Made by a program: the position numbers and the translations under genes. This document shows, in pieces, positions 29,867 to 32,100 of a DNA stretch of 44,039 bases. A model generated the notes under the pieces. That model saw only the letters and a program-made list of their open reading frames with translations, had not been told where the DNA came from and did not search any database. Position 1 is the first letter of the stretch. Each line of letters begins with the position of its first letter. Origin of the DNA: Escherichia phage NHEP3; sequence record PQ511147.1. One strand, 5' to 3'.

Positions 29867-30087
29867 TTCAACTCCTCGATCAGATTCATACGAACAACAC
29901 GGGCCGAAAAAGCGTCACACACAAGATGACAACGGGCAGTCATTACAAGCCAGCCGGTAAGGTCCATGCCGAGCAATTGCTCCGGGCGACTGACCCGCCG
30001 CACTTTGTTCTCCCTCGGGTTAATTTGGTAGCGTTTAACAATTTCGTCCACGACGCGCATACTGCGGTCAACGACTAAGATATTCAT
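29863..30087 (-). CDS. hypothetical protein (74 aa)
   Basis: ORF overlapping both neighbours; start chosen at the ATG at 30087. Confidence 0.4.
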   Translation of the reverse strand: MNILVVDRSMRVVDEIVKRYQINPRENKVRRVSRPEQLLGMDLTGWLVMTARCHLVCDAFSARVVRMNLIEELK

Positions 30088-30553
30088 GTAGTTCACTCTC
30101 GCTCATTATTTCAATTTGTGCGCTGCCTACTGGCGGCGCTTCGTCAAATATTATTAATTGCTGGCACTTGTTATTGCTCGGACCGACTTCGCCGGTGACG
30201 GCGTGAATGAATCTAATCCGCCAGTCAAGAAGAATTATCATATTGGCGGTCCTCCGGGCCAGCTTCGCCCACTTCGTCGACGTGTCCTGATTCAGCAGCA
30301 TGACAGTCCGGCGTCCGTGCGCTGCGCACTCGACCCACGGCAGCGGATCGGAATATGGCGGGTTGCACCATTTCCACCCTTTCAGCTCGGACCAGTCAGC
30401 ATCAAGCGCGCTGTGCTCCGCAGTGAAGTAACGCGGTAGCAGGTGGTTGGTGTCGCTTGCCGCCATATCGTAACGGAATCGGTATTTCCGACGAAGCGGT
30501 TTAAATAAAGCTGGCGGCGTGCGCCAGCTATCTTTCTGTTCACTCTCCGTCAT
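30068..30553 (-). CDS. phage-type DNA N6-adenine methyltransferase (Dam family)
   Basis: Motifs SWRTP and WCNPPYSD typical of the small phage Dam family; the start could be 30571 instead. Confidence 0.75.
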   Translation of the reverse strand: MTESEQKDSWRTPPALFKPLRRKYRFRYDMAASDTNHLLPRYFTAEHSALDADWSELKGWKWCNPPYSDPLPWVECAAHGRRTVMLLNQDTSTKWAKLARRTANMIILLDWRIRFIHAVTGEVGPSNNKCQQLIIFDEAPPVGSAQIEIMSESELHEYLSR

Positions 30554-31004
30554 TCTGCGGGTCCAGTGCATACAGGGCAATTTTATCGCCGGTCTTGAGA
30601 ATGCGTTGCACGCGCTTTGATTCCTCGAATCCCAGCGGTCTGTTGTCGGGGTAGTAGCTGCCGTTTGTGCCGTTACGCCACGCTATAAGCACCAAATCTT
30701 TACGGTCAACCTTAGACTGGCGACCTTTGGGGGGCACGTATCCCTCGGCGCGTTTGCATTGCTCGCGCAGACCTTCGGCAGTGATGCGGTTTAGTGCAAC
30801 GCTGGTGGTGTATCCGGTGCGCTGCATAATCCCCATCAATTCGAATAGCAGTTCGAAGCGCTCCTCTAGCTCCCGGCGCACTTTCTTCTCGCCTTCATAT
30901 AGCGCCTGGTTGGTGTCCGCCAGCGCGTTCGCGCGTTCGGCCTGTTCGCGGGCTTCTAGGCATTGCGCGGCCCAGTATGTTTTTTCTTCTTGTAAAATTT
31001 TCAT
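30540..31004 (-). CDS. hypothetical protein with an N-terminal coiled-coil (154 aa)
   Basis: GGAGA Shine-Dalgarno before the ATG at 31004; a promoter with two TTGGTTGCA motifs lies upstream. Confidence 0.55.
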   Translation of the reverse strand: MKILQEEKTYWAAQCLEAREQAERANALADTNQALYEGEKKVRRELEERFELLFELMGIMQRTGYTTSVALNRITAEGLREQCKRAEGYVPPKGRQSKVDRKDLVLIAWRNGTNGSYYPDNRPLGFEESKRVQRILKTGDKIALYALDPQNDGE

Positions 31005-31050
31005 CGTGTTGTCTCCAGGTATTAGAAAGGGCGTCCAACCGGACACCCTC

Positions 31051-31079
31051 AATATAATGCAACCAATAGGGTTATGCAA
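31051..31079 (-). promoter_or_regulatory. sigma70-like promoter (TTGCAT-N17-TATATT) with two TTGGTTGCA half-sites
   Basis: Read on the minus strand; motif copies at 31058-31066 and 31075-31083. Confidence 0.5.
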
Positions 31080-31084
31080 CCAAT

Positions 31085-31408
31085 TTACGAATAAAAATTG
31101 GGGTCGCGTGCAACGTCTACCAGATACAGATTGCTGATTCGGTTTCCGTAGTGGCCTGGTGTGCGCTGGCGGCACACAACGGCGTAGCCTGGAGGGATTG
31201 TATTGCCGGTCGCGATAATCCACGCCACGCGCGCGCCGGATAGCGTCTTGCCGTTGCACTCGATGCGCGTGCCGCCATCGGCAGTGTTGAGGTTTCCAAT
31301 CTTACATCCGGTGGACTTAAGGCGAATGACGCCGGTCTTGCTGTCGTAGGAGAATAACTGGTTAGTCATTGCAACCGAAAAATCAATGGCCTCGAATGTA
31401 GTATTCAT
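31085..31408 (-). CDS. HNH/AP2-like domain protein with apparently degenerate catalytic residues
   Basis: Shape of HNH_3-type proteins (LFSYDSKTGVIRLK ... NGK ... ARVAWII ... GNRISNLYLV) but the usual His positions read ARV and CRQR. Confidence 0.35.
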   Translation of the reverse strand: MNTTFEAIDFSVAMTNQLFSYDSKTGVIRLKSTGCKIGNLNTADGGTRIECNGKTLSGARVAWIIATGNTIPPGYAVVCRQRTPGHYGNRISNLYLVDVARDPNFYS

Positions 31409-32100
31409 TTTAAATTTTCCTCATTGACTGCTATCGCGAAGCCGCGCGGGGTGAGTGAGCGGATTAATTTTGTACGAGCGGATTTACCCCCGAGGCGACT
31501 ATACTGCTTCGAGTACCCTTTTTCAACGAAAACAGGTTTCTTCTCGGGCATACGGAAGCCGTTGCCGGTCCATAAGCAGGTCAGCTTCGGATATGAATCG
31601 CGGGCGTTGATGTATTCCGGGAATAACGGGTGCACGTCATCCTCCGGCAGATATCCGCCATACTCCCACGGATCAAACGAGTGGTCCGGCTTGCGCCATT
31701 GTGTTGAAAGCACGCTGCGCGGATTCTCAATCATATATGGCACTTCGAAGAAGTCACCCAGGTAAGCGGCGATCTTCGCGGTGCGCACCGCCTTAAGCTG
31801 AAAGGCTGGGTCTTTTGCACGCTTGCGCGGGAAAGCTGGCGCACCGCTCACCGCCAGATCCGTACACGGCGGGAATGCGTAGATGATATCCGGCGTACCG
31901 AAATCGCCATTCATCGCGCGGTCTACAAAGTCCAGATCAATAAACTCATTGCGATATCGGATCCCGCGACCATAAATCCGGTAGTCCAGGTACGACCCGT
32001 GATCGGCTTCGGAGTAGTTGAAGCAATAACACTTATGCCCCATCTCGGCAGCACGCTCAATCATCAAGCCGCTGCCGTCAAATAATGACCAGATAATCAT
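31405..32100 (-). CDS. C5-cytosine methyltransferase-like catalytic core without a target-recognition domain (231 aa)
   Basis: Motif I-like SLFDGSG, motif IV-like AFPPCTDLAVSG (Cys followed by Thr, not Gln), motif VI-like IENPRS; too short for a complete Dcm-type enzyme. Confidence 0.4.
   Translation of the reverse strand: MIIWSLFDGSGLMIERAAEMGHKCYCFNYSEADHGSYLDYRIYGRGIRYRNEFIDLDFVDRAMNGDFGTPDIIYAFPPCTDLAVSGAPAFPRKRAKDPAFQLKAVRTAKIAAYLGDFFEVPYMIENPRSVLSTQWRKPDHSFDPWEYGGYLPEDDVHPLFPEYINARDSYPKLTCLWTGNGFRMPEKKPVFVEKGYSKQYSRLGGKSARTKLIRSLTPRGFAIAVNEENLK

Follow-up and report, generated by a model that had tools for sequence, protein, structure and literature searches.

A conserved block of probable early DNA-methylation genes in a Dhillonvirus coliphage, with a compact Dcm-like cytosine methyltransferase, a Dam and an apparently nuclease-dead HNH relative

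Canonical DNA cytosine-C5 methyltransferases of the PF00145 family, such as E. coli Dcm, M.HhaI and M.HaeIII, are proteins of 327-472 amino acids (aa) with a discrete target-recognition domain, a Pro-Cys-Gln in motif IV and a Glu-Asn-Val in motif VI. Among the solved C5 methyltransferases, the DNMT3 enzymes have the smallest recognition region, and their motif IV reads PCN. One phage enzyme of this class is the trigger of a retron. Escape of phage K42 from retron Ec86 was traced to dcm, a gene of 711 bp whose product works alone from a plasmid: its expression raises 5-methylcytosine (5mC) on the multicopy single-stranded DNA (msDNA) of Ec86, as seen by liquid chromatography coupled to mass spectrometry (LC-MS), and triggers the retron, while a C82A/E128A/K175A/K176A quadruple mutant is inert, both 5mC and retron triggering being lost (bioRxiv 10.1101/2023.08.16.553469). 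Here we analyse a related gene of Escherichia phage NHEP3 (PQ511147.1), which encodes a 231-aa protein and lies in the replication operon next to a small HNH-like gene and close to a dam gene. The whole stretch of 44,039 nucleotides that was analysed is referred to as the window.

We propose, with a probability of roughly 85%, that this region is a conserved early DNA-methylation block of Dhillonvirus, made of a complete and active compact C5 methyltransferase, a Dam and a retained but dead HNH protein. Homology, fold, residue conservation, selection and synteny were established on the sequences and models described below, and the formation of 5mC is taken from the literature on a relative. 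Over its full length, the 231-aa protein shares 54% of its residues with the 'Dcm-like' protein of phage KarlJaspers (Bas06; 236 aa, 711-bp gene), and the K42 genome is itself 95.4% identical to that of KarlJaspers. The KarlJaspers protein has C, E, K and K at positions 82, 128, 175 and 176, precisely the four that were changed in the K42 mutant, and they align to C79, E125, K172 and L173 of the 231-aa protein. The NHEP3 and K42/KarlJaspers proteins are thus members of one family with the same catalytic motifs and the same C-terminal block, but they differ in that K176 is replaced by Leu173 in NHEP3 and that the K42/KarlJaspers enzyme, the trigger of Ec86 (Eco1), belongs to another phage family (Drexlerviridae) and to another gene neighbourhood, which has no HNH-like gene. 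By analogy with this relative, the 231-aa protein would make 5mC in DNA, and a CCWGG specificity is likely but unproven.

A preliminary description of this DNA, made from the sequence alone, had recognized the order of C5-methyltransferase motifs I, IV and VI in the 231-aa protein but regarded it as a truncated, core-only enzyme, devoid of a target-recognition domain and of C-terminal motifs, with Pro-Cys-Thr in place of the canonical Pro-Cys-Gln. The kinship was well seen: motif I reads SLFDGSG (residues 5-11; F7-x-G9-x-G11), motif IV AFPPCTDLAVSG (residues 75-86; P78-C79-T80) and motif VI IENPRS (residues 124-129; E125-N126-P127), and the protein matches phrog_757 'DNA methyltransferase' over residues 1-229 (E 2e-82). 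Motif I also aligns to motif I of HaeIII and of CmoX (an enzyme to which we return below), and the Pro-Cys of motif IV to those of HaeIII, Dcm and CmoX. The truncation, by contrast, is only apparent. A profile search of 1.84 billion representatives yielded 1,890 clusters at 50% identity, almost all of 210-260 aa, and 231 aa is therefore full length for this family. Among 90%-identity clusters, 2,886 relatives were counted. By tblastn the family is found in 1,530 phage records, carriers including Dhillonvirus, T1-like Drexlerviridae, Jerseyvirus, Webervirus, Vequintavirinae (rV5-like) and RB49.

Residue conservation, read from an alignment of 30 relatives, is complete at the catalytic and SAM-binding positions: F7, G9, G11, P77, P78, C79, T80, E125, N126 and P127 are invariant. 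Since T80 is among them, Pro-Cys-Thr is the norm of the family; the residues had been quoted correctly but they are no oddity. The densest run of invariant positions even falls in the C-terminal 30 residues (L203 G204 G205 K206, T210 K211, I213 R214 S215 L216, P218 R219 G220), the very part that had been thought to lack motifs. Across 16 Dhillonvirus sequences, the ratio of nonsynonymous to synonymous substitution rates (dN/dS) of the gene is 0.01-0.06: the methyltransferase gene is under strong purifying selection. Among the compact phage proteins of this very large family, the 231-aa protein is a typical one. It looked odd because it has no Pfam or NCBIfam match of its own, and a check against PF00145 gives a divided answer: the protein itself is not matched, whereas 19 of the 30 relatives touch the profile. 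Six relatives were examined individually: four exceed the 22-bit cut-off, and in none of the six does the match extend beyond motifs I-IV.

The predicted structure points in the same direction. An AlphaFold (AF2) model computed with the 30-sequence family alignment (predicted local distance difference test, pLDDT, 90.1; predicted template modelling score, pTM, 0.89) has a class I Rossmann-like fold of S-adenosylmethionine (SAM)-dependent methyltransferases, and the nearest solved structures are C5 methyltransferases. The top 49 Foldseek matches are all DNMT3A/B/C catalytic domains (E ~4e-6, probability 1.0), and 185 of the 231 residues superpose on DNMT3B, which does not fit a core stripped of its C-terminal parts. 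On generic methyltransferases and dehydrogenases only 113-156 residues superpose (mostly <140), about 50 fewer for the generic methyltransferases than for the C5 enzymes. In the model, E125-N126-P127 sits at the end of strand 122-126. Two short conserved inserts (~143-173 and ~180-207) appear to stand in place of a separate target-recognition domain and to be followed by a terminal helix (219-229), so the protein looks like a minimal architecture that is closest to the DNMT3 catalytic domain and still more compact. With DNMT3A and DNMT3B it shares this minimal recognition region and a residue other than Gln after Pro-Cys; it differs from them by its phage origin, a sequence identity of only 14-18%, a length shorter by ~55 residues and a TM-score of ~0.5. 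With the canonical PF00145 enzymes it shares the order of motifs I, IV and VI, but it has no discrete target-recognition domain, and its motifs read Pro-Cys-Thr and Glu-Asn-Pro.

Several observations weigh against the proposed reading. At the sequence level, the 231-aa protein has no PF00145 match even at E 10; phmmer and a full-length profile run against the PDB gave a marginal match to HaeIII only, over motifs I-IV; hhalign of the family alignment with SpCmoX aligned motifs I-IV alone; and a profile-profile comparison with 15 E. coli Dcm orthologues aligned motif IV alone, with a probability of 0.3, although this orthologue set was too uniform (74-99% identity), so that the comparison was largely wasted. 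A profile of the C-terminal 62 residues found no C5 methyltransferase among PDB sequences, its sole match being a chance one to glucose-6-phosphate isomerase. TM-scores of the model to DNMT3 are only 0.42-0.57. We infer from the predicted structure and the aligned lengths, rather than from a residue-level superposition, that the C-terminal block represents motifs IX/X; because sequence methods fail on this part of the protein, the assignment stays at that level. As to activity, 5mC was measured for a 54%-identical relative, in a preprint whose experiments used a dcm+ host and looked for no other modification, and the CCWGG specificity of K42 Dcm was taken over from E. coli Dcm and is backed only indirectly by msDNA mutants (bioRxiv 10.1101/2023.08.16.553469). 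As to biological role, no simple relation of methyltransferase genes to restriction resistance emerged for Drexlerviridae in the BASEL study, in which Dhillonviruses proved comparatively restriction-sensitive. Finally, AF2 modelling of the small HNH-like neighbour failed (pLDDT 45.8), because only five near-identical sequences were supplied.

Could the 231-aa protein then be an inactive decoy, that is, a DNA-binding protein derived from a truncated methyltransferase, as the preliminary description had envisaged? It is ~100 aa shorter than M.HhaI, it lacks a Pfam match of its own and it has no separate target-recognition domain, all of which could be read in this way. However, none of the motif residues for catalysis or SAM binding varies in a family of ~1,900 50%-identity clusters, the dN/dS of the gene is 0.01-0.06, and the relative from K42 forms 5mC and triggers the retron, both being lost in the quadruple mutant, which includes the catalytic Cys and Glu. 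We therefore regard a decoy as scarcely credible.

A second possibility is an enzyme of altered chemistry, and here a precedent is CmoX. The CmoX paper describes a C5-methyltransferase homologue that uses carboxy-S-adenosylmethionine (Cx-SAM), with Arg (R350) replacing the motif-X Asn and an SPPC context in motif IV, and that is usually encoded beside a phage cmoA; phage CmoA and/or an amide ligase are nearby in 4,257 of 5,615 CmoX candidates. The 231-aa protein could likewise be a Cx-SAM-dependent cytosine C5-carboxymethyltransferase drawing on the Cx-SAM of the host CmoA, since E. coli CmoA is able to feed Cx-SAM to a heterologous CmoX. Both proteins have Pro-Pro-Cys in motif IV, and the 231-aa family carries an invariant Arg near its C-terminus (KLIRSLTPRG) which might occupy, or lie next to, the motif-X Asn position. 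In SpCmoX (identical in sequence to PDB 8YF3_A), motif X reads VGR350MVPP, as against IGNAVPV in HaeIII. The 231-aa family has FPPC, not SPPC, and in KLIR214S215LTPRG the register is ambiguous by one residue, so that either R214 or S215 could sit at the Asn position. DNMT3A/B, the closest folds, have an Arg at this position (GRSW) and yet are true methyltransferases that transfer methyl. Moreover, SpCmoX is a protein of 372 aa with a full target-recognition domain, encoded beside a phage cmoA and a ligase gene, none of which applies to the 231-aa gene. The window contains no homologue of cmoA, cmoB or the ligase (a tblastn search of it with CmoA and CmoB of E. coli gave a best E of 2.2), and of the 83 phage records with a cmoA match, none bears an Escherichia or Dhillonvirus organism name among the matches listed. 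The formation of 5mC in vivo by the 54%-identical K42 Dcm, which raised 5mC on msDNA, argues against altered chemistry in general, and together these points make a CmoX-like activity very improbable.

The substrate might also be RNA or free nucleotides rather than DNA, as for a Dnmt2-like tRNA m5C methyltransferase or a thymidylate-synthase-like dCMP modifier, the latter family having been named in the preliminary description as one to check. Neither fold search of the 231-aa model returned a thymidylate-synthase-like fold, and the idea of such an enzyme was rejected on this ground. For the RNA alternative, DNA C5 methyltransferases score higher, with ~50 more residues aligned, and the Glu-Asn-Pro of motif VI fits DNA enzymes, RNA m5C methyltransferases having Thr-Cys instead. 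The K42 relative, for its part, methylates msDNA. We thus find it hardly tenable that DNA is not the substrate, and we continue with the 231-aa protein as a DNA cytosine-C5 methyltransferase.

The gene immediately downstream encodes a 107-aa protein that the preliminary description had compared to an HNH/AP2 protein with substituted catalytic His positions. Its relationship to HNH enzymes is confirmed by a match to phrog_99 'HNH endonuclease' (E 2e-16), and so are the substitutions. Aligned with four canonical HNH_3-AP2 proteins from related loci and from phage Jersey, it shares their framework (an N-terminal SYD-x-TG, then R-x-A-W and N-R-x-x-N-L), but the catalytic Asp-His has become Val-Cys (Arg-Cys in the homologue of Edwardsiella phage eiAU), Ala or Pro stands where Ala-His-Arg has its His, and a deletion has removed the stretch that contains the last, metal-binding Asn. 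Pfam HNH_3 (PF13392) reaches 13.2 bits against a cut-off of 24.8, over residues 60-77 only, and the match ends before the Asp-His. The AP2 part of the comparison does not hold: past the N-L motif there are just 13 more residues, the protein stopping right behind the HNH-like segment, and no AP2 match was found in it. A phmmer search of the PDB with the 107-aa protein returned noise only.

This gene is conserved. It is present in 162 phage records, which comprise essentially every Dhillonvirus (~157 genomes, 81-100% aa identity) plus eiAU (~39%), and a homologue search brought up five clusters, all from Dhillonvirus. Its dN/dS is 0.01-0.09, with dS up to 1.8. A pseudogene or a homing endonuclease in decay was considered and ruled out, since ~157 genomes carry an undamaged ORF and its dN/dS stays under 0.1. 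Judging from these substitutions and this conservation, the 107-aa protein appears to be a nuclease-dead relative of HNH_3 endonucleases that is maintained by selection. In HNH_3-AP2 phage homing endonucleases (Salmonella phage Jersey gp35; I-HmuI class), the N-terminal region and the framework are those of the 107-aa protein; Jersey gp35 has both HNH_3 and AP2 domains, while the 107-aa protein has lost AP2, the Asp-His, the terminal Asn and the His of Ala-His-Arg, and its gene differs from such homing genes by its fixed genomic position and by purifying selection.

One might still suppose that the 107-aa protein is an active homing or nicking endonuclease relying on non-canonical residues, for example a conserved Gly-His-Tyr (G85-H86-Y87) that is kept between Dhillonvirus and eiAU, and many records do label it 'HNH endonuclease' or 'putative homing endonuclease'. 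Against this speak the change of Asp-His to Val-Cys or Arg-Cys and of the His of Ala-His-Arg to Ala or Pro, the deletion of the last-Asn segment, the absence of AP2 or any other DNA-binding domain, a Pfam match that is below threshold and stops short of the catalytic dyad, and a fixed locus in ~157 genomes instead of the patchy spread of a mobile homing gene. We consider residual nuclease activity unlikely; most likely, the 107-aa protein acts as a non-catalytic DNA-binding or regulatory protein.

What such a protein might do is suggested by its company. In eiAU, the genes around the homologue likewise encode a helicase, a methyltransferase of PF00145 and a Dam of PF05869 (the loci compared were L003, positions 2501-5083, for Jersey and L006, positions 1352-4882, for eiAU). 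The eiAU methyltransferase paired with the degenerate HNH is a longer one of 330 aa, not the compact one, and more than 1,300 phages carry the compact methyltransferase without the 107-aa gene. Given these phages, and given that a plasmid with K42 dcm alone is sufficient for activity, the 107-aa protein is not a general requirement of the methyltransferase family. Since the 107-aa gene is fixed and under purifying selection in two genera, beside a C5 methyltransferase and a Dam in both, and is ATGA-coupled in Dhillonvirus, we tentatively envision that it is what remains of a homing endonuclease, domesticated for a new role in sequence-specific DNA binding, and that it might direct or restrain methylation, or regulate the downstream Dam and Ksap1 genes through paired TTGGTTGCA repeats (see below); this is a speculative proposal, and we do not give it much credence. 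Independently of this proposal, an HNH-type gene occupies the helicase/methyltransferase junction in three phage groups, as an intact HNH_3-AP2 gene in Jersey and in degenerate form in Dhillonvirus and eiAU.

The window as a whole is that of a Dhillonvirus (HK578-like) coliphage, with 91-93% DNA identity to KarlBarth and StarDew. A 3.9-kb stretch around the block matched 157 phage records by megablast, nearly all of them Dhillonvirus, the best being KarlBarth (93.5%) and StarDew (92.6%). In KarlBarth the annotated order is DNA helicase, 'Dcm-like C5 cytosine methyltransferase', 'putative homing endonuclease', hypothetical, 'Dam-like N6-adenine methyltransferase' and hypothetical, and the GenBank labels for the block read helicase, Dcm-like C5 methyltransferase, HNH endonuclease and Dam. 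The methylation block is therefore a core feature, already known and annotated, of ~150 sequenced Dhillonviruses, and not the unusual cluster that it had first seemed to be. The block is also found, at 91-98% identity, in records named 'Campylobacter phage A144', 'Acinetobacter phage NJ01' and 'Sodalis phage SO-1', which suggests mislabelled hosts or contaminating coliphages behind these deposits. The features of the region are listed in Table 1.

Table 1. Genes and repeat elements of the methylation block and its surroundings, in coordinates of the window.
Feature	Position	Strand	Evidence
SNF2-family DNA helicase, upstream of the methyltransferase gene	32097..33611	-	PF00176 E 8.7e-11; phrog_62 E 1.7e-157
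Compact 'Dcm-like' DNA cytosine-C5 methyltransferase, 231 aa	31405..32100	-	motifs I, IV, VI and invariant C-terminal block L203-G220
HNH_3-like protein, predicted nuclease-dead, 107 aa	31085..31408	-	phrog_99 E 2e-16; no AP2
Two TTGGTTGCA 9-mers (a pair) within the 80-nt gap that follows the HNH-like gene	31058..31083	-	repeat count and conservation in Dhillonvirus
Conserved protein, 154 aa	30540..31004	-	phrog_10530 E 1e-90
Phage Dam-type N6-adenine DNA methyltransferase, NPPY	30068..30553 (ATG, 161 aa) or to 30580 (upstream TTG, 170 aa)	-	PF05869
Ksap1, 74 aa	29863..30087	-	97% identical to KarlBarth (Bas17) 74-aa protein
HAD-family phosphatase-like protein	29396..29866	-	PF03767 E 1.8e-5; phrog_415 E 2.1e-36
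TTGGTTGCA copies	428-436, 10236-10258, 26345-26353, 29386-29407, 31058-31083, 40571-40579, 43792-43831		

The helicase and methyltransferase genes overlap by an ATGA (the junction reads cgcaaATGAttatc), and so do the methyltransferase gene and the 107-aa ORF, in keeping with the translational coupling of these two that had been noticed at the outset. The 154-aa gene overlaps dam by 14 nt and is the only gene between dam and the 107-aa ORF, which agrees with the two-gene distance first reported. The Dam itself, correctly named from its NPPY motif, is a routine PF05869 phage enzyme: the match is full-length (E 1.3e-36, 126.2 bits against a cut-off of 28.1) and the translation contains WCNPPYS. 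Within the phage Dam family (PF05869/TIGR01712; T1-, VT2- and HP1-type), it departs from its relatives by a TIGR01712 equivalog score of 88 bits, below the cut-off of 97.05.

Site usage in the window was examined with a maximal-order Markov model, from which observed-to-expected (O/E) ratios were calculated. Avoidance is strong for several 6-bp palindromes: GCCGGC occurs 0 times against 17.8 expected, GGCGCC 1 against 21.7, AAGCTT 0 against 13 and GGGCCC 0 against 11.7, and together with CGGCCG, CCATGG and CAGCTG these sites have 0-1 occurrences each against 9-22 expected. This depletion is classic restriction-site avoidance. GATC is mildly under-represented (163 sites, O/E 0.81) and CCWGG is not (151 sites, O/E 0.96). 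An apparent 2.2-fold enrichment of CCWGG relative to dinucleotide shuffles was dropped, the Markov ratio of 0.96 meaning that the site is merely not avoided. That GATC is little avoided and CCWGG not at all is as expected if both sites are covered by methylation, although this is circumstantial. Aside from these sites, GGCC is under-represented (O/E 0.64), and CTTGG/CCAAG is depleted (O/E 0.41) in a way that resembles the very-short-patch-repair signature of E. coli.

To bring these elements together, we propose that the compact enzyme works as a C5 methyltransferase. SAM would be held by motif I (F-x-G-x-G) and the C-terminal helix, Cys79 of the motif IV Pro-Cys would attack C6 of a flipped-out cytosine, Glu125 of the motif VI Glu-Asn-Pro would protonate N3 and the methyl group would be passed to C5. 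Dam would methylate adenine at N6, probably in GATC. As early genes of the replication operon, both methyltransferases may pre-methylate the replicating phage DNA whatever the Dam/Dcm status of the previous host, with CCWGG and GATC as presumed targets, and this would protect the DNA from restriction enzymes that are blocked by Dcm- or Dam-type methylation. An anti-restriction role, put forward in the preliminary description, is thus a sensible default, but the route proposed there, through a decoy or an altered chemistry, is not the one that the data favour. As a side effect, the C5 enzyme could set off retron Eco1/Ec86. As for the 107-aa protein, its ancestor would have been a homing endonuclease of the HNH_3-AP2 type, from which the catalytic residues and the AP2 domain disappeared, the remainder being kept by selection.

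As a discovery, the block carries little weight: it is a core, annotated module of a well-sampled genus, and a close relative of its methyltransferase has already been characterised both as an active 5mC enzyme and as a retron trigger. What it does illustrate is that phages very commonly encode members of a compact DNMT3-like family of ~230 aa which PF00145 mostly fails to detect, that annotation pipelines often call these members 'hypothetical', and that a dead HNH protein can be retained: we regard the 107-aa gene as a clear example of a homing-endonuclease relic kept by selection.

Downstream of the 107-aa gene, the gap of 80 nt holds a repeat that recurs throughout the window. The 9-mer TTGGTTGCA has 11 exact copies against ~0.3 expected, often paired at 14-31 nt from one another. 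Several copies read TATA-TTGGTTGCA-yACCAAC, which forms a small palindrome, and precede a ribosome-binding site and ATG by 10-25 nt. Nearly all of the Dhillonvirus loci compared have kept, in the same position, the pair that directly follows the stop codon of the HNH-like gene, and eiAU has a pair of this 9-mer as well. The repeat is probably a promoter or operator element, or a hairpin of the 5' untranslated region; we know of no factor that binds it. Positions 28000-35000 gave no Rfam match. A sigma-70 promoter seen by eye in the gap at 31005-31084 (TTGCAT-17-TATATT) failed the criteria of the scanner and is not asserted.

Two further genes of the region deserve mention. The 154-aa protein is kept in Dhillonviruses and carries a 'DNA ligase' label both in PHROGs (phrog_10530) and in the RefSeq record of Sodalis phage SO-1. 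This label appears unfounded: the protein has no Pfam, NCBIfam or PADLOC match (PADLOC also found nothing for the methyltransferase and HNH-like proteins), and a coiled coil is suggested by its N-terminal sequence. Ksap1 is encoded by the 74-aa ORF that separates dam from the phosphatase-like gene, and it is 97% identical to its KarlBarth (Bas17) copy. It has been described as a Dhillonvirus protein that activates the Klebsiella Avs2 defence protein, the Bas17 copy being recognised by KpAvs2, and its gene was placed between methyltransferase and phosphatase genes (PMC11564622), precisely as it is in the window.

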